Assembly (NCBI GenBank): GCA_964561145.1
Contig: CAZLNZ010000006.1
Coordinates: 1 to 64,000 of the forward strand
Direction of reading: 5' to 3'
From: an uncultured Christensenellaceae bacterium
GTDB taxonomy: Bacteria; Bacillota; Clostridia; Christensenellales; CAG-1252
Length of the DNA stretch: 64,000 nt
The notes beneath the pieces were generated by a model. That model had not been told where the DNA came from, did no database searches, and saw nothing but the letters and a program-made list of their open reading frames with translations. Positions 3,456 through 15,777 of the stretch are shown piece by piece. The position numbers were made by a program, and so were the translations under genes. Positions within the stretch are counted from its first letter, which is position 1. Each line of letters begins with the position of its first letter.

Positions 3456-3609
3456 TGTGAAATAAAAATATGAACTTAAACAAGGTTATTTCGCAATCTT
3501 GCCATTTATCGAAATAGCAGCGGCAGATTTTGTGCCATAATTCAACCATATTCGCTCTAAAAATGTGCAAAACGTTATTTTATTCGCTCAAAAAAAGTGT
3601 CGTTTGCTA

Positions 3610-3636
3610 TTGACTTTAGTTTGAATGTGGTATAAT
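3610..3636 (+). promoter_or_regulatory. Promoter-like element TTGACT-N15-TGgTATAAT, carrying the conserved GAATGTGGTATAATA module.
   Basis: -35 at 3610-3615 and extended -10 TGgTATAAT at 3628-3636. The same module recurs in the type-1 repeats. Confidence 0.4.
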
Positions 3637-3721
3637 ATTTTCACAAAGTTTTCAAATGACATTTAGACATGATTGCATTTTCTACTAAAAAAATGAAAAA
3701 TACTGTAAAGTTTATATGTAA

Positions 3722-3757
3722 ATGTCATACTGAGCGAAAGGAATGTGGTGTAATAGA
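3722..3757 (+). repeat. Type-1 short repeat ATGTCATACTGAGCG(A/G)AAGGAATGTGGT(A/G)TAATA, copy 1. It contains an extended -10-like TGgT(A/G)TAAT.
   Basis: Five copies in the window: 3722, 6131 and 6413 on the plus strand, 8611 on the minus strand, plus the module alone at 3623. Confidence 0.8.
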
Positions 3758-3843
3758 ATACAAAATAATTCAAATGATGAAGTGACATTCAAAAAAATTA
3801 GATAGTAAAAAAAAATCAGATTATTACTAAAGAACTGTATAAA

Positions 3844-3930
3844 ATGTCATACTGAGCGGAAGAAATTGGTAACAATTTCAGCAGTCGAACCCCATAGGGG
3901 CGAGGTGCAACCTCGGTATCTCATCCGCAT
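3844..3930 (+). repeat. Type-2 structured repeat, copy A. Layout: ATGTCATACTGAGCGGAAG, a variable hairpin, GTCGAA, hairpin CCCCAT(A/C)GGGG, hairpin CGAGGTGCAACCTCG, then GTATCTCATCCGCAT.
   Basis: Five copies with conserved flanks and a variable central segment. Copy D carries compensatory substitutions in both conserved hairpins. Confidence 0.8.
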
Positions 3931-4030
3931 TATTCCTAGACAAGGATTCAAATCACCATTGCTTTTGATTGAGGAATCACTTTCTCATACTAATAATCAT
4001 TAAAGAATACAGCATTGCATGTTTTAGTAT

Positions 4031-4085
4031 CCCCTATTATACCCCTTGACAAAAGGGTATAATAGGGGTATAATGGGTATAACGA
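4031..4085 (+). promoter_or_regulatory. Perfect consensus sigma70 promoter (TTGACA 4046-4051, 17-nt spacer, TATAAT 4069-4074) embedded in a 14-bp-arm palindrome (cccctattataccc / gggtataatagggg). It is followed by a second GGGTATAAC copy and drives the ATPase gene at 4100.
   Basis: Read directly: ccccTTGACAaaagggtataataggggTATAATgggtataacg. An AAGGAG ribosome-binding site sits at 4087-4092 and the ATG at 4100. An inverted variant lies at 10336-10392. Confidence 0.7.
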
Positions 4086-4099
4086 AAAGGAGATGTAAT

Positions 4100-5911
4100 A
4101 TGGACACTATGAATATACAAAATCGAATTACAGAACTTGAAGCACGTATTGAAACTTTACCCAAAGGTTCTATAGCTAAAAAGAGTATAAACGGTAAAAC
4201 ATATTACTATCATCGATACAACGAAAGCGGAAAGAGAGTCGAAAAGTATATTGATCATGATTCAGTGGAAACTCTTCGTAATCAAATTGATGAGCGAAAG
4301 CTTTTGGAGGCAAGATTGAAGGAGTTGAAGAAAAAAATCGATGTACCACTGAGGAAAACGCAAAAGAAAGAAGTGTTTACCTTTAATTCATCGATTCTTA
4401 TAGGTGATAAACTGAAAAGATTTGTTGCCGAAGTGAAGGCTTATAAAAAGAGGGAATGTTTCTCACAGCTTCATAATTTTATATACAACGATGTCAAGGA
4501 TAGAGTATTTATTCTATATGGTTTGCGTCGTACCGGGAAAACTACAATGATTCGTCAGGCACTTGCCGATATGACCGAAAAGGAAATAGCTAAATCTGCA
4601 TTTATTCAAGTTTCACCTAAAGATACGCTCGGGGGTGTTAACAAAGATTTGATGCTTTTGGAACAAGGTGGCTATAAGTATATTTTCATTGACGAGGTCA
4701 CCTTTATGGCTGACTTCATCGAGGGTGCGGCACTTTTCTCTGATGTATTTGCTACATGTGGTATGAAAATCGTTCTTTCAGGAACCGACTCTCTGGGCTT
4801 TATGCTATCTAAAAGCGAGCAGCTCTATGATAGGTGTATTCTCCTTCATACAACCTTTATCCCCTACAGAGAGTTTGAAAAAGTACTCGGTATAAAAGGG
4901 ATAGACGAATTTATTCGCTATGGTGGCACCATGAGCCTTGGCGGTATCAATTACAATGAAGGTTTTTCATTCAGTAATACGAATACAGTAAACGCATATG
5001 TTGACAGTGCAATTGCAAAAAACATCCAACACTCCTTAAAGTATTATCAGGATGGCAGTCATTTTCGCAATCTAGCAGATCTTTACGAAAAAAACGAGCT
5101 AACCAATGCTATCAATCGTGTGGTAGAAGACATTAACCATCGCTTTACAAAAGAAGTAATTACTCGTGAGTTTAAATCAGGTGATTTGTCACGTTCGGCA
5201 AGAAATTTACGCAGAGATCGCTTTGCACCAAATACAATCCTTGACGATATCGATATTAAAGCCGTAACCGAAGAGCTCAAGAGTCTTCTTGAAATCCTTG
5301 ACGAAGAGGATCAAATGGTTAAGGTGGACGACATCCACGCTGCAGAGATTAAAGAATATCTTATTCTTCTTGATCTGATTTACGAAATTGACGTGCGAAG
5401 TTTCCCGAATGTGAATGACATCAAAAAGAACATAGTTGTATCACAGCCCGGAATGAGATATGCACAGGCAAAGGCACTTGTTGAAAGCTTACTCCTCGAT
5501 GAAAAAATTAATGGGCTGAGCTTGCATGAACGTATGCAAGTAATCGAGAGGCTTTTAAGCGAGATTAAGGGCAGAATGATGGAGGACATCGTCCTACTTG
5601 AAACCAAGTTAGCAAAGCCTCAAAAAGATGTCTTTAAACTTCAATTTGCCATTGGAGAGTTCGATATGGTAGTGTTTGATCCGGAAAAATTATCCTGTGA
5701 AATATTCGAGATAAAATATAGTACCCAGATAGTAGATCAACAATATCGACACCTTATTGATGAGCAGAAATGTGCACAAACCGAACACCGTTTCGGTACA
5801 ATTAAGAATAAATACGTTATCTACCGTGGATTAACCGAGATTGTTAACGGTATACATTATATAAATGTTGAAGAATACCTGAACAATTTGTGTAACGATA
5901 ATTCCCTATAA
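4100..5911 (+). CDS. AAA+ ATPase of the AAA_14/DUF4143 family (COG1373-like). It has an N-terminal ~100-aa extension with a coiled coil and a possible AP2/arm-type DNA-binding motif.
   Basis: Walker A motif GLRRTGKTT; DUF4143-like C-terminus (FEIKYSTQIVDQQYRHLIDEQ). The start is placed at 4100 rather than the ORF-track 4046 because the RBS and promoter lie within 4046-4099. Confidence 0.7.
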   Translation: MDTMNIQNRITELEARIETLPKGSIAKKSINGKTYYYHRYNESGKRVEKYIDHDSVETLRNQIDERKLLEARLKELKKKIDVPLRKTQKKEVFTFNSSILIGDKLKRFVAEVKAYKKRECFSQLHNFIYNDVKDRVFILYGLRRTGKTTMIRQALADMTEKEIAKSAFIQVSPKDTLGGVNKDLMLLEQGGYKYIFIDEVTFMADFIEGAALFSDVFATCGMKIVLSGTDSLGFMLSKSEQLYDRCILLHTTFIPYREFEKVLGIKGIDEFIRYGGTMSLGGINYNEGFSFSNTNTVNAYVDSAIAKNIQHSLKYYQDGSHFRNLADLYEKNELTNAINRVVEDINHRFTKEVITREFKSGDLSRSARNLRRDRFAPNTILDDIDIKAVTEELKSLLEILDEEDQMVKVDDIHAAEIKEYLILLDLIYEIDVRSFPNVNDIKKNIVVSQPGMRYAQAKALVESLLLDEKINGLSLHERMQVIERLLSEIKGRMMEDIVLLETKLAKPQKDVFKLQFAIGEFDMVVFDPEKLSCEIFEIKYSTQIVDQQYRHLIDEQKCAQTEHRFGTIKNKYVIYRGLTEIVNGIHYINVEEYLNNLCNDNSL

Positions 5912-5940
5912 CACGCATCTATAAAATCCATACATCGTAG

Positions 5941-5971
5941 GGCGGGGACTTGACTCCCGCCGAATCTTTTT
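5941..5971 (+). terminator. Rho-independent terminator after ATPase 1: GC stem gcggggA...Tcccgc followed by a T-run.
   Basis: ggcggggacttgactcccgccgaatcttttt. Confidence 0.55.
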
Positions 5972-6130
5972 ACACTACGGTGTTCCACACGCCTGCTATC
6001 CCTCAATCTCTAGGCTACGCCTTTCGACAGCCCCTTTTTCACAAGCAATGTGTTGGCTTAAGAAAACCTGTATAAACACAAGCAAAAGTGGTATTAAAAG
6101 GATATCGATTTACAGCAAAATCACATCTCA

Positions 6131-6165
6131 ATGTCATACTAAGCGGAAGGAATGTGGTATAATAA
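6131..6165 (+). repeat. Type-1 repeat, copy 2.
   Basis: atgtcatactaagcggaaggaatgtggtataataa. Confidence 0.8.
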
Positions 6166-6248
6166 ATTAAAAAAGTAAATGCCAAAGTACACTATAGAAT
6201 GCAAAAATCCTTCTAGAAAATCGAAAAGTATCGCAAAAGTATACATTA

Positions 6249-6410
6249 ATGTCATACTGAGCGGAAGGTGAAGCCTGGAGTCGAACCCCATCGGGGCGAG
6301 GTACAATCTCGGTATCTCATCCGCATTCACTCGCATTGCTTTACACAAGGCAGCCTTTTCCTATGGTGTGTTAATACAAAATTCTAAAATAATTGCCGGC
6401 AAATTATCTA
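6249..6410 (+). repeat. Type-2 repeat, copy B (6249-6326), plus a conserved 3' extension (tcactcgcattgctttacacaaggcagccttttcctatggtgtgttaatacaaaat..). The extension is shared with copy C.
   Basis: The extension at 6327-6400 is near-identical to 6621-6690. Confidence 0.8.
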
Positions 6411-6412
6411 AA

Positions 6413-6447
6413 ATGTCATACTGAGCTAAAGGAATGTGGTACAATAA
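6413..6447 (+). repeat. Type-1 repeat, copy 3.
   Basis: atgtcatactgagctaaaggaatgtggtacaataa. Confidence 0.75.
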
Positions 6448-6542
6448 TTTCAAAAAGAACTAAAATCACAAAAAACATGCAGAGAAATTGAAACGCTATA
6501 ATATAGTGCGAATATTGGCAATAATACCAGTAATCCATATAA

Positions 6543-6700
6543 ATGTCATACTGAGCGGAAAGCGAAGCTTGTAGTCGAACCCCATCGGGACGAGGTGCAA
6601 CCTCGGTATCTCATCCGCATTCACTCGCATTGCTTTACACAAGGCAGCCTTTTCCTATGGTGTATTAATGCAAAATCTTAAAATAATTATCAGTAAATTG
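6543..6700 (+). repeat. Type-2 repeat, copy C (6543-6620), plus the shared 3' extension. Together with 8449-8527 (minus strand) it forms a perfect ~80-bp inverted repeat with an identical variable segment (AGCGAAGCTTGTA).
   Basis: The reverse complement of 8449-8527 aligns base-for-base with 6543-6620 apart from about two mismatches. Confidence 0.85.
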
Positions 6701-6706
6701 TTTAAG

Positions 6707-6790
6707 ATGTCATACTGAGCGAAGGCGTAGCCGTAGTCGAACTCCGCAGGAGCGACACTCGGTGTCGGTATCTCATCCTTGTTAATCGGC
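6707..6790 (+). repeat. Type-2 repeat, copy D, divergent. Hairpin 2 changes from cccc-atc-gggg to ctcc-gca-ggag. Hairpin 3 changes from cgagg-tgcaa-cctcg to cgaca-ctcgg-tgtcg. Both changes are compensatory.
   Basis: Base pairing is preserved while the primary sequence changes on both strands of each stem. Confidence 0.75.
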
Positions 6791-6910
6791 ATCTCAATCC
6801 TTATAAAAAGGTCGCAGTGACATAAAAATGTACTGTATCATAAATTTAAATCCAAAATTAAGCCCTCCCTATGTTACTCTTGCAAAAATGTTTTGCTGTT
6901 TTACACAACA

Positions 6911-6993
6911 ATATTGAAAAGTCAACAAAATTAACCTTAAAAACTATTGAAAAGTCAATGAATATGTGTTAAAATAATATTGAAAAGTCAATG
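6911..6993 (+). repeat. Three direct repeats of (A)TATTGAAAAGTCAA(T/C), starting near 6911, 6944 and 6975, immediately upstream of and overlapping the start region of ATPase 2.
   Basis: Spacing of ~33 bp, which is about three helical turns. Confidence 0.7.
6947..6975 (+). promoter_or_regulatory. Promoter TTGAAA-N17-TGtTAAAAT for ATPase 2, overlapping the middle direct repeat.
   Basis: -35 at 6947-6952; extended -10 at 6967-6975; GGAGG at 6994-6998; ATG at 7003. Confidence 0.5.
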
Positions 6994-7002
6994 GAGGTGT
7001 CT

Positions 7003-8319
7003 ATGCTTTACAGAAAAATTGAAAAAGTTATTACTTCTCATCTAAAATCCGGCACTAACAAAATATTAATTGTAGATGGTGCAAGACAGGTTGGTAAGTC
7101 TTATATAATTAGATATATTGGAAAAAAGCTTTTTAAAAACTATGTTGAGATAAATCTCTTAGAGGATTCTTTAGGTAGGAAAGCCTTTGAAAATGTTAGA
7201 ACTGTTAAAGACTTTTACTTTCGTGTAAGTATGTTCGCAGGCAATAATATGGGTTCTAAGGAAGATACCATCATTTTTCTCGATGAAATACAAGTATACC
7301 CCCATTTGCTCACATTACTAAAATTTTTAAGGGAAGATGACAAGTATAACTATATCGCAAGCGGGTCTTTATTGGGCGTTACTCTTGCAAAAACCTCATC
7401 TATTCCTATGGGTAGTATTTCCGTGGTTCAAATGTACCCTTTGGATTTCGAAGAGTTTTTATATGCCAATGGCTTTAATGAATTTGCAATTACCTCAATG
7501 AAAGAGCATTTTCAAAATATGCAAAGCCTTGAACCGACTGTACATGACTCTATACTTGATTTGTTTAAGAAATATCTGTTAATTGGCGGACTGCCCGATG
7601 CCGTTAACACCTATTTAACCGGTTTTAATATAGTCGCTGTAAGGGAAATTCAAAAAGAAATCCACGAGTTTTATAGTGCTGATGCCTCTAAATACGATAC
7701 GGAAAACAAATTAAAAATACGTCGTATTTATGATATGATACCATCGACTTTGGAGAACAAAAAAAAGAGAGTGGTAATTAAGGATATCGAAAATATAAAA
7801 GGAAAAACCTATTCTCACTATCAGGATGAGTTTGACTATTTGATTTACTCGGGAATTGCATTAGACGTAAAAGCAATCTCAACGCCCACTTTTCCGTTAA
7901 TAGAGTCAAGCGAAAAAAACTTGCTTAAGCTTTATCTTAACGATGTCGGAATACTTACAAGCATTCTTTATAATAATAACATTCTTGCGGTTCTGGATAA
8001 CGAAAAGAGTGTTAATCTTGGCACGGTTTATGAAAGCGTTGTTGCAAGCGAATTGAAGGCACATGGTAAGAGTTTGTTTTATTATGACAATCGCAGTAAC
8101 GGAGAGGTGGATTTTTTAATAGATGATTACGATAATCTATCGGCACTGCCAATTGAGGTAAAGTCAGGCAAGGACTATACGATTCACAGCGCCCTAAATA
8201 GATTTGTAACCAATAGTGATTATAATGTAAAAAAAGGGTATGTTTTATCAAATGAAAGGGAAGTATTTACTAACGGAAAAATAACATATCTTCCTATTTA
8301 CTATGTAATGTTCCTTTAA
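7003..8319 (+). CDS. AAA+ ATPase of the AAA_14/DUF4143 family, paralogous to the gene at 4100..5911.
   Basis: Walker A motif GARQVGKSY; C-terminal DUF4143 motif (PIEVKSGKDYTIHSALNRF). The start is placed at 7003 (GGAGG RBS) rather than the ORF-track 6991. Confidence 0.7.
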   Translation: MLYRKIEKVITSHLKSGTNKILIVDGARQVGKSYIIRYIGKKLFKNYVEINLLEDSLGRKAFENVRTVKDFYFRVSMFAGNNMGSKEDTIIFLDEIQVYPHLLTLLKFLREDDKYNYIASGSLLGVTLAKTSSIPMGSISVVQMYPLDFEEFLYANGFNEFAITSMKEHFQNMQSLEPTVHDSILDLFKKYLLIGGLPDAVNTYLTGFNIVAVREIQKEIHEFYSADASKYDTENKLKIRRIYDMIPSTLENKKKRVVIKDIENIKGKTYSHYQDEFDYLIYSGIALDVKAISTPTFPLIESSEKNLLKLYLNDVGILTSILYNNNILAVLDNEKSVNLGTVYESVVASELKAHGKSLFYYDNRSNGEVDFLIDDYDNLSALPIEVKSGKDYTIHSALNRFVTNSDYNVKKGYVLSNEREVFTNGKITYLPIYYVMFL

Positions 8320-8448
8320 CTAAAATCCAACTTTATCTTCTCATTTTCAACCGAACGAATGAAATCCTCATAAATTTAGCAGCCAATTTCTTGAAGCGAG
8401 GCAAAATCCTAAAGAATGGCTCGAGTGCCGTAAAGAAAATTGCCTTTT

Positions 8449-8527
8449 ATGCGGATGAGATACCGAGGTTGCACCTCGCCCCGATGGGGTTCGACTACAA
8501 GCTTCGCTTTCCGCTCAGTATGACTTA
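8449..8527 (-). repeat. Type-2 repeat, copy E, in inverted orientation. It is the right-hand partner of copy C flanking ATPase 2.
   Basis: See the 6543 entry. Confidence 0.85.
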
Positions 8528-8610
8528 ATGTATAACTTTGTTATATTATCGATTTTTTAGAAGTATTCCTGTATTTTAGAGTGCTATTTTATCATTTACT
8601 TTTTCAATAT

Positions 8611-8644
8611 TATTATACCACATTCTTCCGCTCAGTATGACATT
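8611..8644 (-). repeat. Type-1 repeat, copy 4, in inverted orientation.
   Basis: The reverse complement reads atgtcatactgagcggaagaatgtggtataata. Confidence 0.75.
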
Positions 8645-8821
8645 TAGACAGTATTTTGCTTTATAGTTAAAATCTTATATCACTATTATTACTCGCACCT
8701 ATACATGTTTTCTTTATCCCTTGCATTGCATCTCACGACTGATGCCCTTGTCTTCGGCTAACAGTTCCTACTGCCAGCCTGTAGCGGACTTTCACCGCCA
8801 AGTTATTACGCGTGCCGAGTA

Positions 8822-8869
8822 CACAAGAAAAACCGCCGTTGGTTTTACTCAAAAGCGGTCAAATTTTAT
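8822..8869 (-). terminator. Rho-independent terminator for the minus-strand AlbA_2 gene.
   Basis: On the minus strand: accgcttttgagtaaaaccaacggcggt followed by tttttcttg. Confidence 0.5.
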
Positions 8870-8876
8870 ATGTTTA

Positions 8877-10211
8877 TTATTCTTGTATCTTCCAATGTCC
8901 ACCTTTAGCTGGGCCGACATGAATTATCACTTGACTTTTCTTTAATGCCCTACTAATAGTTGGCACAGATTTTCCTGTTTTCTCTGACATTTTAGCCTTT
9001 GAGATGTATGGGTTTTCTTTAATAAGATTGATTAGCATTTTTTCTGTATCATTTTCTGTATCATTTTCTGTATCACTTTTCCCAAGTAAACGTTCTTGTT
9101 TGCTTCTGTTTAATATGTTATAGGGCAGAATACATTGTATAAATGACGAGCCAAAATGATAGGCATCTTTACCATATTTCGACACTATAGTAGGCACACC
9201 TTTTCCTGATTGTTCCATATAGTGTAATTGCATGAAAATTTTTGCAAATTCTTCATTGACAGGTTTACTGATTCCATTAAAGAATTCTTCTTTTGTCATC
9301 CCTTCAGTTAAAAGTCCGTATGAGATAATTTCTAATCTATCATCAAAACCATATATTGCCGGAGGTGTTTGTTCTACCCATAAATTATGACATACTGCAT
9401 TAAACCAAGCCTCACGGAAGGACTCATTATCAAAATACGGCGTATCGACTCTATTCTTTCCAATAATATTTGTTTGAATTATATTGAGCACATTTAATGC
9501 ATAATCCAATGCATCTTCCATTTGCTTAAAAATACATCCTCTTTCAAATTCTTTTCGTGATAAAAATTCTGCTTTGGTTGTGCCATTAAACCGAACTACT
9601 TTTATTGATGTATCATTCTGATCTGATACCAGAAATGCGATATAGTTATATTTGCCTTCATTATTTCTCAAATTATAGTTTTGTTCAAACGTTGCACCAT
9701 TAAAATGTATACCTTTAAATGCAAGTATCGCTTGAAATTGAGCAAACGATAAATCTTGACGAGGGCTTAATTTTTGTTTCATTGATTGCTTAGGAATGGA
9801 CAGTTGTGCAATATATCTTTGTTCGATTTCCTCTTCAGTCATACTACGGCAGGTCGTACCAATACGGACATAACAGCCACTTGCACTACGACCATATTTC
9901 TTTATATAGAAAAGGCCATCACCCTTGCGGACCTTTATTTCAACAACATTTTTGCCTTCAACAAACTTTGTGCCGAGCTCAATATATTTTTGTGAATTCG
10001 GTAAAATTTGCGTAGTAATTATATCTGCGATTTTCTTTTGCGTTTCATCAAGATTGTTAATACCAACAACACTTCCGTCATCTTCCACGCCGATGTAAAT
10101 AACACCGTCAAAGCTATTAAGAAATGCCACGATTTCTTTTGAAAGAGAGTCGTTCATTATTCTTTTTAATTCTACCTTTTCGGTTTCTTGGAATATCATA
10201 AAAGCACCCAC
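8877..10211 (-). CDS. Schlafen-like AlbA_2 (divergent AAA_4) domain protein. It has a RecG-C-terminal-like ATPase-fold region and a C-terminal HTH, and is typically annotated as a putative DNA-binding protein or transcriptional regulator.
   Basis: N-terminal motif ELKRIMNDSLSKEIVAFLNSFDGVIYIGVEDDGSVVGI; C-terminal HTH-like region VPTISRALKKSQVI. Confidence 0.65.
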   Translation of the reverse strand: MGAFMIFQETEKVELKRIMNDSLSKEIVAFLNSFDGVIYIGVEDDGSVVGINNLDETQKKIADIITTQILPNSQKYIELGTKFVEGKNVVEIKVRKGDGLFYIKKYGRSASGCYVRIGTTCRSMTEEEIEQRYIAQLSIPKQSMKQKLSPRQDLSFAQFQAILAFKGIHFNGATFEQNYNLRNNEGKYNYIAFLVSDQNDTSIKVVRFNGTTKAEFLSRKEFERGCIFKQMEDALDYALNVLNIIQTNIIGKNRVDTPYFDNESFREAWFNAVCHNLWVEQTPPAIYGFDDRLEIISYGLLTEGMTKEEFFNGISKPVNEEFAKIFMQLHYMEQSGKGVPTIVSKYGKDAYHFGSSFIQCILPYNILNRSKQERLLGKSDTENDTENDTEKMLINLIKENPYISKAKMSEKTGKSVPTISRALKKSQVIIHVGPAKGGHWKIQE

Positions 10212-10335
10212 TTCACTTTAAGTTATTTTAATTATAACAAAAAAAATGGAAAAATTCAACACTTACCCGATAACAATTGACTATTTTTCCTTGAATCTAT
10301 TCACTAATGATTGTATTAATCTTTTGCGATGTTTT

Positions 10336-10392
10336 TGCTATACCCCTATTATACCCATTATACCCCTTTGTCAAGGGGTATAATGGGTATAA
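10336..10392 (-). promoter_or_regulatory. Inverted variant of the palindrome-embedded promoter element. A 13-bp-arm palindrome (cccattatacccc / ggggtataatggg) carries TTGACA in its loop on the minus strand, followed by TATAAT at a 15-nt spacing and further GGGTATAAT copies. It points toward the AlbA_2 gene.
   Basis: Minus strand reads ccccTTGACAaaggggtataatgggTATAATagggg. Same building blocks as 4031-4085. Confidence 0.6.
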
Positions 10393-10469
10393 TCAATGAG
10401 GTAACCAACTGCGGACGTTTTTTTGCTATGGGGTTTGTTTATGGTGAGGTAAAGTTTATTACAGAAAAT

Positions 10470-10497
10470 AGCGAGACTTTTGTCGGTCTCGCTATCC
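10470..10497. other. 10-bp perfect hairpin (atagcgagac / gtctcgctat) adjacent to the flank homology box.
   Basis: Perfect inverted repeat read directly from the sequence. Confidence 0.4.
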
Positions 10498-10537
10498 TGT
10501 AAAGTGTAAATTTACACGAAGTAGTTAATTGTTGTTC
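10497..10537. repeat. Inverted copy of the 3'-flank homology box at 3358..3397.
   Basis: See the 3358 entry. Confidence 0.75.
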
Positions 10538-10548
10538 ACAGAGTCAAA

Positions 10549-12831
10549 GACAAATGTGGTTCCGTTACCTTTATAGTTACTACCTTTGGCTAAAGTTGTA
10601 CTTCCGGAAGTGGCGGTGTAGGTATGGTTGGTGTCTGTTTCTGAAAAGGATATTCCACTGCTCAACAATTTTGCCATTTACCGTGGTATTGACATGGATT
10701 TTAATATATGGACCCTTTTTAGTTGTTATAGTACCACCTAAAACTCCTTTTCTTTCGGTTTTAAGGGTATCATCAACAATAAAATTAACGGACTTTTTAG
10801 CATAACCACCATCATATGTAGCATATGTACCCGTAATTGGTGTTGGTTGAGCAAAATCATCACCCGTTTTAAGTGCTATATACTATTCCAGCATATTCGC
10901 TATTTGCAATAGTCACTGCAGCACCCTCTTCAATGGTTAGAGATGCACCAGACATAATCTTTAGTTTCGAATTAACGGTTACATTTCCTTCAGCAACAAT
11001 AATATTATAATATTCACAAATTGGGATTTCAACACCTTTAGACGTGACCGTATAAATACTTATTTTTAGTGTTATATTATTTGTTGTAATATTTCCGTGA
11101 GATTCAATTTTGATTTTCCCATTATTATCAACACTCTTAATAATGTAACCATCTTCGATTGTAAATAATCCACCAGCTCCCATAAAAGTAACAGAATCAT
11201 TCGCCTCAAACCCGGTTCCTGTAATATAGTAATGTGCATATAAGGAAGCTCCGCTATTAATGCTTAAAACTGTTTCTATATTTGCTACACGGAATTGGCT
11301 AAATGGGAATGATTTAAATGTTTTTGGACCAACTAAATTCCATACATCATTAACAAGTTTTAGGGCGGCGGTACCGCCGGGCCAGTCTTCAATATCAAGA
11401 AGTTCATATACTTCCGCACCGGCATATGCAATTACAGTACCAGTTCCTTTTATATAGCCAAATGAATATAATTCACCATGAACATATATATAAGAATTAG
11501 TTTCCATGCTTATTTGCCCATAATCCCCGGAGGTATATCCGGAATGGGGTTGTCCAGAAGATTGTATGCCGGAAACATTTAATATCCCAGATTTGGATAC
11601 TGTTAATGATTTATCGTTGGCAATTGTGAGAGTTCTATGTGCTGAACCTGTTGAAACACCATTCTTAGCAGTGTTTATAGTGCTTATATAGGAGTAATTA
11701 TTGCTATATGGCACTAACAAAGTTACACCACTCTTTACTGTTGCACTATTATTAAGTATGGTATTGTACATAACGACTATTGTACCGCTAGTTGTTGAAG
11801 ATAAGGCGTCCTCGATTTCTAAAAGGGTTTTAGTGTCGGTACTTAATGCAACACTTCTAACCTTGACAGTAACAGTAACCGCTTCCGTTGCCAACATGAA
11901 GTTGTCAGATTTTAAGGAAACCGTCATAGAATATGTTCCACCTTGAGAGAAGAGGTTCGTAGTATTGCCATAACTCAAGGTATAAGATGAGGTATCTTCA
12001 ATAACTGAACCGTTGTAATAAACATTAGGAATAGCCTTAATCTGATCGCCGGTATAATCAACGTAAACAAGAGAATCAATCGTTACAACCGCCTTGGAAA
12101 TCTTAAGAGTTATCTCAACACCGGTACACTCGTTATAGTTACTATCATATTCAGAACCCTTATTCCAAATTGCTGTAAAGACAGGGTACTCGTCGTCCTT
12201 TATACTAGTACGAGAAGCAGTAAGAGAGGAGTCTGTCCAAGTGTATCCTTCGGGCAGAGTGTAATTTGCAAGGGTATTGCCGCGAACATATTCGCCTGCG
12301 TTCTCAATGGTGTACTTAAGGTCGCCTGCATTCCTGCTTGCCTTATTGATGGTTATACTTATTTCTGTTGTGTAATCATCATAGTTAGTTGAATCAGGAT
12401 TATAGATTACAGCGAAGGTATGAGCTGCCTCACGAGCATTGAGGATAGTATTCTTTTGTGCATCTGTTACGGTACTTGCAAAGCTGAAACCGGCACCTGA
12501 ATTAGGAAGATCATTAAGGTAGTCTGAGACCTTCTTCTCGGGATCGAAGTCTTGCGTGATACTAGTATTAGGTATATCGGCTTCTTTTAATTGTAGCTTA
12601 CTCAAAACTTTAATGATGACAGAGACATCCTTATTATGGTAGTTGTAAGAGTCGGCATTATAGTAAGCAGAATAGCTCTTACCATCAGTACTTACAGAAG
12701 GTACTAAACTATCGTCAACCCAATAGTAACCGCTAGCCAACGTGACTTTTCCATCGGTTGATAATTTTTTCAGTGTATTCGTAGGATCATATGTTCCAAG
12801 CTCAAATTCCGTGGTGTAGATGCTAGGAATC
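10549..12831 (-). pseudogene. Silent, 5'-truncated and 3'-frameshifted inverted paralog (cassette) of the surface-protein gene. Homology to 886..3357 of the expressed gene.
   Basis: No ATG: the ORF track begins at an internal TTG (12740), and an in-frame TAG lies eight codons upstream of where the homology starts. It is identical to the expressed gene over 12326-12831 and divergent (~65% aa) thereafter. After the TAA at 10869-10871, homology to the last ~150 aa of the expressed gene (GVLGG-ITT.., ATSGSTTL.., YKGNGTTF) continues in other reading frames down to 10549. Confidence 0.75.
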
Positions 12832-13041
12832 TTAGCATAATCTTTCTAGAACCACCTTTATGTTCGATATTTTCGTAAGGCGGAGGCAAGGCTTACACTG
12901 CTATATTATGCAATATTTGTACGCAAAGAAGTTGTAATGTGGATATTTATTTGACGGGACGGCATCAAAGATGCCTGCAATCCTTCAGTCAATTCGCTAT
13001 GCTCCTTGATAGTGCCTTTTATATCGGGCAGCTTTGTTTTA

Positions 13042-13065
13042 GGATGAGATGCCGATATCTCATCC
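13042..13065. repeat. Perfect palindrome GGATGAGAT-gccgat-ATCTCATCC. It shares the GGATGAGATA/TCTCATCC motif with the 3' ends of the type-2 repeats.
   Basis: Read directly; also resembles the 3' tail of copy D. Confidence 0.5.
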
Positions 13066-13215
13066 TCATTGTTACATTAACATAGAACAACTATAGGTCA
13101 TACTATAACATCGGTTTCTTTTCCTTATGAAAAGCCGTTATTCTATACAATGATTACTGTAACCTGTGTAGTTTGGGTTGGCGGTTTGGTTATCATAGGT
13201 TGATTAAAAAAAGAA

Positions 13216-13250
13216 CGTGGTACTGAAAAACAAGTACCACGCCTTTTTTC
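13216..13250 (-). terminator. Bidirectional rho-independent terminator. It mainly serves rtcB on the minus strand.
   Basis: cgtggtact-gaaaaaca-agtaccacg with T-runs on both strands. Confidence 0.6.
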
Positions 13251-13319
13251 CTGTTTCCCCCTGCCAGGAATATTACCAATATTACCTAGAGACAAGATTA
13301 GGTAATAGAATGGTTTAAA

Positions 13320-14519
13320 TCAATTAGCGGCTTTTAAGTTATATACGGGGTATATTCTACGCTCTATATCAACTGTATCCGCTATGTTTGCAATGAGGGT
13401 GTTTACGCTCTTATATGCATCGGGGCTTTCATCAAGCGTCCCTTTGCAAATGGAAGTGGAGTAGATGCCCTTCATTTGCTGCTCATACGTATCCATGGAT
13501 AAGGTTTGGAACGCCTTCGAGCGGCTCATAAGTCGTCCGGCTCCATGAGGAGCACTTTGGTTCCAGTCCTTATTTCCAAGTCCGATACATATCAAAGCAC
13601 CGTCACGCATATTGATGGGTATCAATAACCTTTCACCCAAACGAGCTGAAACAGCACCTTTACGTAATATATTATAGTCGATATCGATGTAATTGTGAAC
13701 CGTTGTAAAGGTATTTTTTATATTAATTTTCATTATTTTTTCTATTTCAGCCATCATTGCTTGTCTATTTAGCTCCGCGAAATGCTGTACGATTTTCATA
13801 TCGTGAATATAGTCCTCAAAATCTTTTCCTTCAACATACGCTAGTTCTTTTGGAATGTCGCATTTTTGCTTTTCAAGATCTCGGAGTTTCTTTTCTATCT
13901 GCTTTTCGTGTCCTTTTCTTTTTAGTGAATCGATAAGTGTATTAATTTGCTCCTGTTTCTTATCGGAAAAACGTCTATATGCAAGCTTTTGATAGTAGGA
14001 GGCGACCTCTACACCTAGGTGACGGCTTCCGGAGTGAATAACAACATAAAGATTTCCTTCATCATCCTTATCTACCTCTATAAAGTGATTTCCGCTACCT
14101 AGTGTACCTATGCTAAGCATGGCTCGATTATGGTCTATACTTTTATAGCAACGGAGCTCGGTAAGATCGATTTTTTCCGAATACGGGTGTGGCATTTTTC
14201 GTATACTATTACCTGTTGGAATGTTTTGACGTATGCCTTTGTCGAGATCGGGGAAAGAAAGCTCCTTTTCTTCGATTTGAGCAACCTCCATTCCACAACC
14301 GATATCTACGCCCACCATATTGGGAATCACTTTATCCGTTATTGTCATAGTCGTTCCTATCGTACAACCCGCACCCATGTGGACGTCGGGCATAATGCGT
14401 ATTTTACTTTTTTCGAATGGCTTGAAATCGCATAATGTTTTAATTTGTTCTATTGCACCCTGTTCTATTATGTCGGTATAAATCTTCGCACTGTTATGCT
14501 TACCTTTTATCGTCATCAT
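13320..14519 (-). CDS. rtcB: RNA ligase RtcB (release-factor-H-independent short form, ~399 aa).
   Basis: Motifs MPDVHMGAGCTIG, GSGNHFIE and APHGAGR. AAGGAGG RBS 8 nt upstream. Confidence 0.85.
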   Translation of the reverse strand: MMTIKGKHNSAKIYTDIIEQGAIEQIKTLCDFKPFEKSKIRIMPDVHMGAGCTIGTTMTITDKVIPNMVGVDIGCGMEVAQIEEKELSFPDLDKGIRQNIPTGNSIRKMPHPYSEKIDLTELRCYKSIDHNRAMLSIGTLGSGNHFIEVDKDDEGNLYVVIHSGSRHLGVEVASYYQKLAYRRFSDKKQEQINTLIDSLKRKGHEKQIEKKLRDLEKQKCDIPKELAYVEGKDFEDYIHDMKIVQHFAELNRQAMMAEIEKIMKINIKNTFTTVHNYIDIDYNILRKGAVSARLGERLLIPINMRDGALICIGLGNKDWNQSAPHGAGRLMSRSKAFQTLSMDTYEQQMKGIYSTSICKGTLDESPDAYKSVNTLIANIADTVDIERRIYPVYNLKAAN

Positions 14520-14760
14520 GTCTGATACCTCCTTCGTTTTATATTAATATTATATCAGTCTTTTTCGACTTTTAGTAGTACGCAGTTATTAATAAAAAAG
14601 TGCCCCCTTGTTTTTGCACCAAATGTGGCTTTGTTATAAGAAAAAATGATATAAATCGTGTCTTTACGTTTTATTGAATGGGGAATCTGTGTTTTTTAAT
14701 AAGGATATCACTTTACTTACGCCCCCTTTTTGTGGTACATTATATTCATAGGAGGTGGTT

Positions 14761-15777
14761 ATGACCTACGATAAAATCAAGATATACGTTACACCAAGGG
14801 TGGGCGACATACTTTCAAACGATGCCGACAGCTTTGAATTCTATAAGTCGGACGGTGTTACTCCAAATAAAAATGGATTGTTAACTAGACTTATAGTTAA
14901 CTATTCTCAAGAGTTTAACGAAAGACAGGAAAGGTTATATGATAGGATTAATTGTGAATTGAGAAAAGTGTTTATCGATGAACAAACCAGGGATAATCTT
15001 TGTAATGAAATTGCCAACAAGGTTAACAAAGAGCTTTCGTCGGATTCTACGGAAAAGTTTAATCGCTTGATTTCTCTAAAACCCACAAAAGAAACAGCAC
15101 CTTTGATAGAATATGCAGAGAATTATTTGTTGAAGGGTGCATCTTTGTCAGAGTATTATCGTAATATGTTTACGGCATATGCGAGCTTTACGCAAGATAA
15201 ACGTGAGGAGATTATTTTTAAAGAAAATTATGACTTGCTATCGAAGGCTATCAACGAGGGTAAAAAGGTCTTTATTACCACACGTGCTAAGGCTCGTTTT
15301 TACGAGCTTTCACCCTATGCTTTTGCTCGTTCAAAGGAGGAAATGCATGTGTATTTATTGACAGAAAACAGAAATCGCTGTCGCACTATAAGATTATCAA
15401 GAATAGAATCCGTTGTTATTCTTAAAAAGGCGGCGACTTTTACGGAAAAAGCGGTAGCAACCTTTAAAAAGATGCAAGAATACGGACCGCAATTTTATTA
15501 TCTTGCAAATGAAGAAGAAATTGTTATTAAACTGACAAAAGAAGGGGTTAATAGATATCGTAAAATATATGTACACAGACCTATCCCTAAACGCATCGAA
15601 GGTGATCTTTATTATTTCGATTGTTCTGCCAATCAAGTTGTAGAGTACTTTAAAAGGTTTGGTGATGAGGCATATGTGGTTTCTCCGCCCGGTGTTCGTG
15701 AGTCTATATTAAGCTTTCATTATCGTGCCGTAAAAGCATATAGAGGGAAGAGCAACTCTTCTCCGAATAATAAGTAG
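14761..15777 (+). CDS. WYL-domain protein with a WCX-like C-terminus and an N-terminal region of unknown function. It is divergent from rtcB.
   Basis: WYL core MHVYLLTENRNRCRTIRLSRIESVVIL. The C-terminus (GDEAYVVSPPGVRESI) resembles the WCX extension. AGGAGG RBS 5 nt before the ATG at 14761. Confidence 0.55.
   Translation: MTYDKIKIYVTPRVGDILSNDADSFEFYKSDGVTPNKNGLLTRLIVNYSQEFNERQERLYDRINCELRKVFIDEQTRDNLCNEIANKVNKELSSDSTEKFNRLISLKPTKETAPLIEYAENYLLKGASLSEYYRNMFTAYASFTQDKREEIIFKENYDLLSKAINEGKKVFITTRAKARFYELSPYAFARSKEEMHVYLLTENRNRCRTIRLSRIESVVILKKAATFTEKAVATFKKMQEYGPQFYYLANEEEIVIKLTKEGVNRYRKIYVHRPIPKRIEGDLYYFDCSANQVVEYFKRFGDEAYVVSPPGVRESILSFHYRAVKAYRGKSNSSPNNK

Follow-up and report, generated by a model that had tools for sequence, protein, structure and literature searches.

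The window analyzed here, a 64,000-nucleotide stretch of bacterial DNA, contains an array of hairpin repeats that surrounds two candidate phage-defense ATPase genes. The larger repeats, termed type-2, are probably not a new RNA gene, but rather an elaborated local form of a widespread REP-like, "TGTC-tagged" intergenic hairpin repeat. We lean modestly toward the view that they are strand-specific long-form REP-like hairpin repeats that act as substrates for recombination or mobility in a defense island.

Five type-2 copies of ~80 nt are present exactly where the initial annotation had placed them: copies A (3844..3930), B (6249..6326), C (6543..6620) and the divergent D (6707..6784) on the plus strand, and the inverted copy E (8449..8526) on the minus strand. 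R1, a covariance model built only from these copies, scores them at 94, 105, 106, 87 and 107 bits, respectively, and with filters off it detects no additional full copy across the 64 kb. The 5′ motif TGTCATACTGAGCG, with two or fewer mismatches, occurs nine times in the window, always within 3723-8642, compared with 0.24 occurrences in shuffled sequence. Nine units, five of type-2 and four of a shorter type-1, form one cluster inside 5 kb, and a single weak remnant is located outside it at about 13040-13105. Most REP families are dispersed, and this tight clustering counts against our preferred explanation.

The layout originally described (5′ motif, palindromic variable segment, GTCGAA, hairpin 2, hairpin 3 and GGTATCTCATCC) holds overall, with small departures in copy D, which contains GAGCGAAGG and has the 3′ end CATCCTTGT, and in copy E, which begins AAGTCAT. 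Hairpin 1 of copy A is AAATTG-GTAA-CAATTT, and in copy B both hairpin 1 and hairpin 3 contain G-T wobbles. A feature absent from the earlier description is a closing stem (ATAC/GTAT) that surrounds all three hairpins. Each unit is composed of an unpaired (T)GTC tag, a short closing stem starting A-T, T-A, a conserved, purine-rich core (GAGCG ... AGTCGAA) and an unpaired CTCA tail, with the loop in this lineage expanded into three small hairpins.

The type-1 units, also absent from the earlier description, carry the type-2 5′ motif and are short degenerate forms of the type-2 hairpin. The first (3722..3754, plus strand) reads GTC-ATACT-GAGCGAAAGGAATGT-GGTGT-AAT, with tag and stem as in type-2, and is a weak match to R1. 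The 3′ half of the second (6131..6163, plus) is TGTGGTATAAT, an extended -10-like box. The third (6413..6445, plus) is a GGTACAAT variant found by 5′ motif scanning and repeat comparison, and the fourth (8613..8643, minus) is inverted and scores 16.9 bits with R1. All type-2 copies except D have a type-1 unit 117-130 nt upstream.

Units and spacers together bear signs of recombination. A 294-nt unit consisting of a spacer end, a type-2 copy, an 85-nt spacer and the next 5′ motif is present as two tandem copies with 84% identity (6216..6723, plus; repeat comparison), such that the type-1 unit at 6413..6445 occupies the place of copy D in the next repeat. Over 76 nt, copy C matches copy E in inverted orientation with 99% identity, and the inverted type-1 unit plus copy E mirrors the 6413-6620 block. 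The AT-rich spacer between type-1 and type-2 at 6164..6248 (plus) has 80% identity to the inverted spacer at 8527-8612, and equivalent spacers are found at 3755-3843 and 6446-6542, producing a wave in GC content between hairpin units (0.58-0.65) and spacers (0.20-0.30). The units are mosaic, in that spacers pair U2 (copy B) with U4 (copy E) and hairpins pair U3 (copy C) with U4. Repeat comparison also reveals a rearranged remnant at 3610..3670, in which a type-1 3′ half (GAATGTGGTATAAT, plus orientation) lies behind TTGACT and precedes the 5′ flank and tag in an inverted copy (AAATGACATTTAGACA). Finally, the truncated 5′ part of a group II intron (8725..8824, minus) adjoins the inverted block immediately after the terminator of the gene at 8877-10211, and marks a rearrangement border. 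The inversion event itself is deduced from the arrangement of the sequence; neither an inversion nor a polymorphic or empty site was directly seen, which counts against our preferred explanation.

The two genes in this array encode an AAA_14 ATPase (4100..5911, plus), which weakly matches PDC-S01, a candidate defense family in PADLOC, and an ATPase with AAA_14 and DUF4143 domains (7003..8319, plus), which matches the same family with an E value of 3e-175. The second gene is bracketed by the inverted blocks, with copies C and E on either side, and copy E is situated between it and the convergent gene at 8877-10211 (minus). Homology of this gene to other genomes is confined to 6911-8319; its relatives there lack the repeats, and homology ends at the gene unit.

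The compensatory changes claimed for copy D are precisely as reported, with hairpin 2 changing from CCCC-ATC-GGGG to CTCC-GCA-GGAG and hairpin 3 from CGAGG-TGCAA-CCTCG to CGACA-CTCGG-TGTCG. In the five-copy alignment, standard pairs make up 95.2% of cells and five pairs are altered on both sides, a level of covariation matched by one of 500 shuffles; slid controls are 26-46% paired. When two foreign long forms are added, pairing reaches 98% and 11 of 17 pairs are altered on both sides, a result matched by none of 500 shuffles with an alignment that was fitted to the model. The case for structure is made by covariation and not by thermodynamics, because folding energies of single copies are mostly no better than those of shuffles (z of -0.1 to -2.7 as RNA and -0.3 to -3.1 as DNA). 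G-T wobbles favor the tagged strand by ~7:1, and this strand folds about 1 kcal/mol better than the other in all five copies. The most reasonable reading is a one-strand-specific fold that is recognized as single-stranded nucleic acid.

Relatives in other DNA show that the type-2 repeats, although proposed to be a new family, belong by architecture to a widespread superfamily of hairpin repeats, as one of its long forms. The common core is (T)GTC, a 5-bp stem A-N-N-C-T, GAGCG, one or more variable hairpins, AGTCGAA, the second half of the stem and CTCA, and it is found in unrelated DNA of 34-63% GC that includes prophages, Hymenobacter and Planktothrix plasmids and an 833-kb metagenome contig. 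A pattern search in which the closing stem was left free recovered units at nine viral or prophage loci, again of 34-63% GC. Of 10 distinct units, nine have four to five standard pairs in the closing stem, where the middle pairs are TT/AA, TC/GA or CC/GG, whereas control matches without AGTCGAA have one to three such pairs, with a single exception that has four. R1 matches long forms at locus L051 (54 bits, E 2e-14) and on metagenome contig L046 (37 bits, E 6e-9). Contig L046 holds further units, and its long form has a single hairpin in place of hairpins 2 and 3; the counterpart of hairpin 2 in L051 is precluded by a loop that would measure 1 nt. The smallest members of the superfamily are 29-nt hairpins.

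Units in the window are mostly direct repeats, which counts against our preferred explanation, whereas relatives elsewhere are usually arranged as inverted doublets, including a perfect one on the Hymenobacter plasmid (stem ATGCT/AGCAT); tandem doublets occur on the Planktothrix plasmid, and doublets are also present within prophage intergenic regions. The stems are indeed maintained by compensatory changes, but this covariation does not point specifically to an RNA gene, since the long forms of L046 and L051 are antisense to both neighboring genes and the short forms consist of a hairpin alone, mostly arranged in inverted doublets.

A recombination or mobility substrate of this kind might operate as follows. 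The tagged strand would fold while the DNA is single-stranded, and a recombinase or transposase whose gene lies elsewhere would recognize the tag, stem base and core. A scan of window ORFs at 1-39.9 kb and 47.6-53.4 kb revealed no such enzyme, which counts against our preferred explanation. Events targeted to the hairpins, combined with normal homologous exchange among near-identical units, could duplicate units, invert segments and swap neighboring genes. Selection on the fold, aided by correction within each palindrome, would keep the stems paired as their sequences drift. The active form would be DNA rather than RNA, and the units would have a role in gene exchange.

An improbable alternative is that the array is neutral palindromic DNA. 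Copies would arise from local duplication and gene conversion, and template switching during replication would copy one palindrome arm onto the other, such that apparent compensatory changes appear without structural selection or a dedicated protein. Correction of hairpins by template switching is established as a mutational process. The clustering, tandem duplication and mosaic structure of the copies, the near identity of C and E, the unexceptional folding energies and the minimal loops (3-5 nt), which are expected from arm-to-arm copying, are all consistent with this reading. However, it leaves unexplained the cross-phylum identity of the unpaired tag, core and tail despite differing stems, the covariation of a long-range closing stem whose halves are ~65 nt apart in nine of 10 independent units, and the wobble bias toward one strand.

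We also regard it as improbable that the repeats encode a structured RNA, whether a small RNA or one acting in cis, with transcription from the type-1 TGTGGTATAAT box. Such an RNA would be new because it has no Rfam match, and may form a multi-way junction of the closing stem and three hairpins, perhaps catalytic or protein-binding, with conserved junction residues CUGAGCG, AGUCGAA and CUCA. Every stem covaries, G-U wobbles lie mainly on one strand, and unpaired junction sequences are identical between this 38% GC genome and contigs of 48-52% GC. Moreover, the type-1 3′ half is TGNTATAAT in three type-1 units, the extended -10 box precedes four of the five type-2 copies, and all five are sense-oriented relative to an upstream gene or box. 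Nonetheless, the foreign long forms lack a type-1 box and run antisense to both flanking genes, minimal members are only 29-nt hairpins, and, as noted above, neither hairpins 2 and 3 in L046 nor the hairpin-2 counterpart in L051 is retained. Copy D lacks a box, two of the boxes are degenerate (TGTAAT and TACAAT), a search for a terminator after the unit found none, and folding z-scores are mostly insignificant. The cross-phylum conservation of the unpaired core and the -10 boxes are also compatible with RNA and count against our preferred explanation. Known RNAs are rejected, as no Rfam family is matched, hammerhead included, and the initial annotation correctly set aside a hammerhead ribozyme, a tRNA (the unit has no tRNA similarity) and a CRISPR repeat (spacing is irregular and orientation mixed).

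A quite unlikely source of the units is an IS200/IS605-type element, as the initial annotation suggested, with the units as its ends or derivatives, or REPINs mobilized by a RAYT-type Y1 transposase, in which single-strand hairpins are cut beside a guide tetranucleotide before moving by copy-out or paste. Imperfect hairpins with an unpaired 5′ tag at the base, and inverted doublets among relatives, have the expected form, in which GTAG REPs are bound by TnpA-REP (PMC3479197), and some RAYT groups are present in Clostridia and Cyanobacteria (PMC5581495). The folded strand is the plus strand in four of five type-2 copies, which cumulative GC skew weakly suggests is the lagging-strand template. 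However, the tag is GTC rather than GT[AG]G, the units are clustered and not dispersed, and a conserved target tetranucleotide was sought 5′ of the units and not found. No IS200/IS605, Y1 transposase or TnpB gene is present among the ORFs scanned (1-39.9 kb and 47.6-53.4 kb), and the published survey, in its account of CGTC-type repeats, likewise found no tyrosine transposase gene flanked by them (PMC3733652).

Integron attC sites conserve structure, not sequence. Integron-like attC sites, or attachment-site duplicates from tandem cassette or island integration, would bracket single defense-island genes with structured repeats as seen here, but this very remote reading is rejected because RYYYAAC/GTTRRRY boxes are absent, no integrase is found in the ORFs scanned (1-39.9 kb and 47.6-53.4 kb), the unit has several small hairpins instead of one long bulged hairpin and lacks tRNA or tmRNA similarity, orientation is mixed with as many as three units between two genes, and relatives occur as doublets in prophage intergenic regions.

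Among known systems, the superfamily fits, on described features only, the CGTC/TGTC-tagged REPs of Di Nocera, De Gregorio and Rocco (2013), which include Neisseria dRS3 and Rickettsia RPE-4 and RPE-6 (PMC3733652). As characterized in the survey's description of the class, these have an unpaired CGTC (often TGTC) tag, A/T at the first two stem positions, 8-9-bp stems, 4-5-nt loops and a 3-nt tail (CCA), and they form head-to-head dimers in several phyla with no dedicated transposase. The repeats described here share the unpaired (C/T)GTC end tag, first stem pairs A-T, T-A and a short unpaired 3′ tail; they are extragenic, multicopy and found in several phyla with no transposase gene nearby, and their relatives are head-to-head doublets with tags outward. 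Unlike CGTC REPs, the window units have a stem of 4-5 Watson-Crick pairs, a loop of 49-58 nt with three covarying hairpins, a conserved GAGCG...AGTCGAA core and a CTC(A) tail. They are also clustered rather than dispersed, and they seem to come from a Firmicute host, whose phylum is outside those reported for the class in that description. The differences in stem, loop, tail and phylum count against our preferred explanation.

The local array layout resembles, by analogy, Neisseria NIME arrays, in which dRS3 hairpins flank RS spacers and which have been linked both to the end-points of recombination and to the integration of phage into dRS3 (PMC1797815). In both cases, GC-rich hairpin units alternate in a GC wave with lower-GC spacers of 50-150 nt that form repeat families, the array adjoins variable genes, and signs of recombination lie inside it. 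The window differs in genus and phylum, as NIME arrays are described as unseen outside Neisseria (PMC1797815), in having only one array, in a hairpin unit of ~80 nt rather than 20 bp, and in that no phage or recombinase is known to target its unit. GTAG REPs, REPINs and BIMEs are similarly built on a hairpin whose unpaired 5′ tetranucleotide is conserved, and form inverted doublets as do the relatives found here; the recognition of one strand in single-stranded form by RAYT (TnpA-REP) parallels what we propose for the window units. These differ in their GTC tag, expanded loop and clustering, and in that the scanned ORFs contain no RAYT gene. Like the small MITE-type repeats found in Firmicutes and other bacteria (BOX, RUP, Correia and bcr1), the units are short, non-coding, structured, intergenic and multicopy, and may carry promoter-like boxes. 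They differ from MITE-type repeats in lacking bounding terminal inverted repeats and target-site duplications, and comparison with the phage and plasmid collections gave no sequence similarity.

Direct reading, repeat finding and alignment place a 78–87-nt type-2 unit at 3844-3930 (copy A), 6249-6326 (copy B), 6543-6620 (copy C) and 6707-6784 (copy D) on the plus strand, and at 8449-8526 (copy E) on the minus strand, such that all five copies listed in the initial annotation were recovered. The 5' motif of these units, TGTCATACTGAGCG, occurs nine times in the window when up to two mismatches are permitted, always within 3723-8642, compared with 0.24 occurrences in shuffled sequences. Four of the nine occurrences are accounted for by a shorter type-1 unit with the organization GTC-ATACT-GAGCGGAAGGAATGT-GGTAT-AAT. 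Each type-1 unit resides 117–130 nt upstream of a type-2 copy, and the AT-rich spacers between them are mutually related. Copy D has no type-1 partner; in a 294-nt tandem duplication (6216-6723), it sits where the previous repeat carries a type-1 unit. The spacers in the window are 85–130 nt in length with a GC content of 0.20–0.30, and form families that are 64–80% alike. The hairpin units, all of which are intergenic, have a GC content of 0.58–0.65. The stem is preceded by TGTC in eight of the nine units (AGTC in copy E), the closing stem begins with A-T and T-A pairs in every unit, and a conserved unpaired 3' tail reads CTC(A). In type-2 units, the closing stem consists of four to five standard pairs and encloses 49–58 nt that include three hairpins.

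The structural proposal of the initial annotation, that the stems are kept paired by compensatory changes, is borne out by the alignment of the five copies, including the described changes in the hairpins of copy D. On a structure composed of the closing stem ATAC/GTAT and the three hairpins, standard pairs occupy 95.2% of cells, and in five pairs both partners have changed. This pairing score was reached by 1 of 500 shuffles, and structures slid by one to three columns are 26–46% paired. The folding energies of single copies are mostly not better than those of shuffled sequences, whether computed as RNA (z of −0.1 to −2.7) or as DNA, and therefore the evidence for structure comes from covariation and not from stability. 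The energy model prefers another stem, GCGGA/TCCGC, but copy D disrupts it and relatives do not retain it; it was rejected in favour of ATAC/GTAT, for which covariation extends across the superfamily.

Exact and gapped DNA patterns gave no matches in a 185,579-species genome collection lacking the source lineage, and a metagenome scan produced a single match (L046) on an 833-kb contig of ∼52% GC. This unit reads GTCATACTGAGCG-AAA-[CCCCG...CGGGG]-TGCAGTCGAA-[TGCCTGCC...GGCAGGCA]-GGTATCTCA, and is adjoined by an inverted short relative, GTCACCCTGAGCGACCGCTAGGGAGTCGAATGGGTCTCA. On the basis of the L046 match, we proposed a general core in which GTC, one 5-nt half of a stem and GAGCG are followed by a variable segment, AGTCGAA, the second half of the stem and CTCA. 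A scan of viral contigs for this core, with the stem left free, identified nine loci with GC contents of 34–63%. Nine of ten distinct units have stem halves that can pair, with middle pairs TT/AA, TC/GA or CC/GG, and the remaining unit reflects a register artefact. Matches to a pattern without AGTCGAA, which served as the negative control, have one to three stem pairs (four in one exception) and are due to chance except for L051 and L054. Likewise, the 15-mer 5' motif alone gives 35 matches in viral contigs, all by chance except L021.

The relatives carry a TGTC or CGTC tag and enclose a segment of 12–40 nt. Those with stems ATTCT, ATCCT, ATGCT and ATACT all begin with A-T and T-A pairs, and ACCCT variants retain the first pair only. 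The minimal member of the superfamily is a 29-nt hairpin, GTCACCCTGAGCGAAGTCGAAGGGTCTCA. Many units are inverted doublets with the GTC tags outside, as seen at four of the fetched loci (L046, L049, L071 and L072), and a frequent partner in these doublets is a second hairpin type, GTC-ATGCT-GACGATAGGA-AGCAT-CTC. A BLAST search of plasmids with a canonical short form revealed that Hymenobacter carries a perfect inverted doublet, with the stem ATGCT/AGCAT, and that Planktothrix has doublets in tandem. In a Planktothrix agardhii plasmid (AP017994.1, locus L071), an unannotated region at 2300-2600 repeats in tandem every 98 nt, and each repeat holds an inverted doublet of two superfamily hairpins with stems ATTCT and ATCCT. 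A prophage with a terminase and a HipA-like kinase (IMGVR_UViG_2844336043_000002, loci L048 and L049) carries at least 13 intergenic superfamily hairpin units; those of L049 are paired as tags-outside doublets, and the GAGCG-type units share their strand with the phage genes that were examined. Together with the window, whose ATPases have homologues named from Clostridia and Bacilli assemblies, these examples give the family a range that includes at least Bacteroidota, Cyanobacteriota, prophages and the source genome. BLAST searches of phage and plasmid collections with the composite unit (type-1, spacer and type-2) gave chance matches only, spurious ORFs translated from the repeats had no candidates in a 5.8-billion-protein set, and motif strings and pseudo-peptides matched only unrelated primers in full-text literature.

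A covariance model built from the five type-2 copies, as the initial annotation had recommended, recovers only these copies and weak type-1 matches in the 64 kb with filters off. Among the fetched loci, it matches two foreign long forms, L051 (54 bits, E 2e-14) and L046 (37 bits, E 6e-9). The L051 unit, UGUCAUCCUGAGCG-UA-[GGGCG AA CGCCC]-GCAGUCGAA-CCUCAGG-[CGCGC GCAA GCGCG]-GGAUCUCAUC, is identical to the window copies in its unpaired tag, core and tail, but differs from them in all stems. For the seven sequences combined, in an alignment fitted to the structure, 98% of cells are paired and 11 of 17 pairs are changed on both sides, a score that no shuffle reached and for which slid controls give 25–46%. 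The segment after AGTCGAA varies, with two hairpins in the window and one long hairpin in L046; in L051, the first “hairpin” after this motif is unable to form. Thus, the constant part consists of the tag, the closing stem, GAGCG...AGTCGAA and the tail, and the hairpins are lineage-specific expansions. The repeat family announced by the initial annotation is real and its structure is kept, but it is not a new kind of element. The element is best read as an expanded, clustered variant of TGTC-tagged REP-like hairpin repeats.

The non-Watson-Crick pairs in these structures are G-T on the tagged strand, with the one exception of a C-A pair in hairpin 2 of copy C. G-T pairs occur in the closing stems of all window copies, L046, L051 and one L049 unit, and further examples are found in hairpins 1 and 3 of copy B and in the type-1 unit at 3722. 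In each of the five copies, folding of the tagged strand is also more favourable than that of its complement, by ∼1 kcal/mol. These wobble pairs and the better fold imply that one strand is relevant, and speak against simple duplex recognition. Sense-direction transcription is possible for every window copy. The long forms of L046 and L051 are antisense to both flanking genes, with that of L051 located inside a 100-nt gap. Loops are mostly GNA-type triloops, and copies C and E carry the motif d(GCGAAGC), which is unusually stable in DNA and gives a hint of a DNA form. Based on the strand evidence, the antisense foreign long forms and the loop type, we favour single-stranded DNA rather than RNA as the active form.

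That the element is instead a new structured RNA would fit the conservation of its unpaired core and the −10 box in the type-1 unit, but seems unlikely given the antisense placement of the foreign long forms and a superfamily whose units are often hairpin doublets. We also consider it improbable that the long form is itself a functional folded nucleic acid, either a new widespread RNA or a single-stranded DNA site recognised by an as yet undescribed recombinase through which defence genes are shuffled. The closing stem and hairpins around invariant CUGAGCG, AGUCGAA and CUCA are common to the Firmicute-like source genome and two unrelated contigs, and an RNA of this type could be catalytic or protein-binding and expressed from the extended −10 box of type-1. 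If the RNA or the recombinase-site version were true, 'orphan' CGTC/TGTC-tagged repeats would gain their missing partner.

Known identities can be dismissed, in agreement with the initial annotation for tRNAs, hammerhead ribozymes and CRISPR repeats. ARAGORN detects no tRNA or tmRNA in the window, and a tRNA-like cloverleaf was rejected for its junction strands of 8–9 nt. The hammerhead core CUGANGA...GAAA...UH is absent from both strands on direct reading. Rfam 15, whose families include hammerhead, twister, pistol, hatchet, HEARO and riboswitches, gives no match at gathering score in the whole window and nine related loci, and no relevant match at E up to 10; at this threshold, region 3500-8900 yields only chance microRNA-type matches on an unrelated palindrome. 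A CRISPR array is excluded by the irregular start-to-start spacings (2396, 294 and 162 nt) and one inverted copy; moreover, the spacers are themselves repeated. Integron attC sites were rejected because RYYYAAC...GTTRRRY boxes are missing, orientations are mixed and no integrase occurs among the scanned window ORFs. The sole frame open across the units is shifted in copy D relative to copy C, and therefore the type-2 unit is not coding. IS200/IS605 ends or derived palindromic elements are unlikely, in that the 5' flanks vary (AAAT, TAAT, AGAT and TTAA in the window; GTTT or CACT in relatives), with no fixed tetranucleotide. No recombinase or transposase, including TnpA, TnpB, RAYT and integrase, was found among the window ORFs scanned (1–39.9 kb and 47.6–53.4 kb).

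The array surrounds two ATPase genes. The product of gene 2 (7003-8319) matches the PADLOC candidate defence family PDC-S01 with an E value of 3e-175, and that of gene 1 (4100-5911) matches this family weakly. The region 4100-15777 resembles a defence island, with two PDC-S01-type AAA ATPases, a Schlafen/AlbA_2-HATPase_c_4-HTH protein, RtcB, a WYL-domain protein and an unannotated 623-aa protein. Just upstream of gene 1, at 4022-4088, a perfect sigma-70-type promoter (TTGACA, 17 nt, TATAAT; 12/12) is located inside a 38-nt palindrome, CCCCTATTATACCCCTTGACAAAAGGGTATAATAGGGG, which looks like an operator overlapping its own promoter. Upstream of gene 2, three direct copies of a ATATTGAAAAGTCAA-type box span 6911-6993. 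Unrelated genomes (L038, L042 and L045) have this region conserved, also with internal repeats, ahead of their orthologous DUF4143 ATPase genes. An association of the repeats with the DUF4143 ATPase family was rejected, since relatives of gene 2 with 69–80% identity in other genomes carry no repeats and their homology, spanning 6911-8319 only, ends at the gene unit.

Indirect signs of recombination are the mosaic make-up of the array, a near-identical pair in inverted orientation and the truncated intron at the array border. The composite units are mosaic, such that the type-1-plus-spacer parts pair U2 with U4 (80%) and the type-2 parts pair U3 with U4 (95%). Copies C and E, the only inverted pair in the window, are 99% complementary over 76 nt, 1.8 kb apart, and bracket gene 2. 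A truncated 5' fragment of a group II intron (∼100 nt; 8725-8824, minus strand), which starts GTGTACTCGG, directly follows the terminator hairpin and T-run of the gene at 8877-10211 and ends ∼80 nt before the inverted type-1 unit. Intron 5' regions that precede ltrA on Enterococcus and Staphylococcus plasmids are 75–82% identical to this fragment, which is unmatched in Rfam even at E up to 10. A rearranged remnant at 3610-3670, in which a type-1 3' half behind a TTGACT box is followed by an inverted 5' flank and tag, resembles the scar that an inversion or recombination within a type-1 unit would leave. At ∼13040-13105, ∼4.4 kb outside the cluster, ATCTCATCC and then GTCATACT appear in permuted order; here a palindrome, GGATGAGATGCC/GATATCTCATCC, with the type-2 tail motif is followed 36 nt on by GGTCATACT, the type-2 tag and stem. 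Matches of the covariance model to this site are weak (E 0.5–5), and the order of the parts, with the tail ahead of the head, suggests that they are what remains of a degenerate or permuted repeat of this family. Short-read contigs from the same strain (L001 and L002, Logan SRR10277277) end exactly inside type-2 units, and thus the repeats break assembly.

REPs have been sorted into GTAG- and CGTC-tagged superfamilies by Di Nocera et al. (PMC3733652). In their description, CGTC REPs are hairpins with an unpaired tag at one end (CGTC, but frequently TGTC or CCTC), an 8–9-bp stem, complementary A/T at the first two positions, a 4–5-nt loop and a 3-nt unpaired tail, mostly CCA. They are mostly head-to-head dimers, extragenic and described as having no associated transposase gene, and Neisseria dRS3 is a member of family CGTC-1 (PMC3733652). 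By these described features, the superfamily resembles CGTC REPs in its tag and the A-T/T-A base of the stem. A tail is present but reads CTC(A), dimers are seen among the relatives more than in the window, and no transposase was found among the window ORFs scanned. The two groups are set apart by how long the stem and how large the loop is, by the tail sequence and by the purine-rich core conserved in the present superfamily; the window units have neither the 8–9-bp stem nor the 4–5-nt loop of CGTC REPs.

GTAG REPs, in contrast, have GT[AG]G 5' at the hairpin foot where the window units have (T)GTC followed by A. TnpA-REP recognises their tag and hairpin in single-stranded DNA, and needs GTAG for binding and cleavage alike (PMC3479197). 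RAYT groups are present in Clostridia and Cyanobacteria (PMC5581495). By analogy, and given the anatomy of the units, an enzyme encoded at another site might recognise the strand-specific hairpin. Bacteria commonly carry CGTC/TGTC-tagged hairpin repeats, for which, in contrast to GTAG REPs, no enzyme or function is known. To these repeats the window adds a multi-hairpin version whose stems covary and whose unpaired core is fixed across phyla, evidence for one particular strand as the folded one, and an array of NIME type that encloses candidate anti-phage genes in a genome other than Neisseria. If such arrays do promote exchange or inversion of defence genes, the conserved core would also point to a protein or RNA activity that reads the repeats; otherwise, the window offers a clean case of a “classic signature of RNA structure” belonging to an already published repeat class.

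NIME arrays consist of dRS3 hairpins flanking 50–150-bp spacers of lower GC content, which produces a GC wave, with variable genes adjoining (Bentley et al., PMC1797815). They are linked to recombination end-points and to filamentous phage integration into dRS3, and according to the same study had not been seen outside Neisseria. Homologous exchange between units may likewise take place in the window, as anatomy and analogy would suggest, and if such arrays promote the exchange or inversion of defence genes, they would provide a cheap, general way to vary the immune repertoire. By this analogy, the array around the defence genes is arranged like NIME: hairpin units alternate with lower-GC spacers that form repeat families, the same GC wave results, and the array flanks variable genes, with the PDC-S01 genes absent from this context elsewhere.
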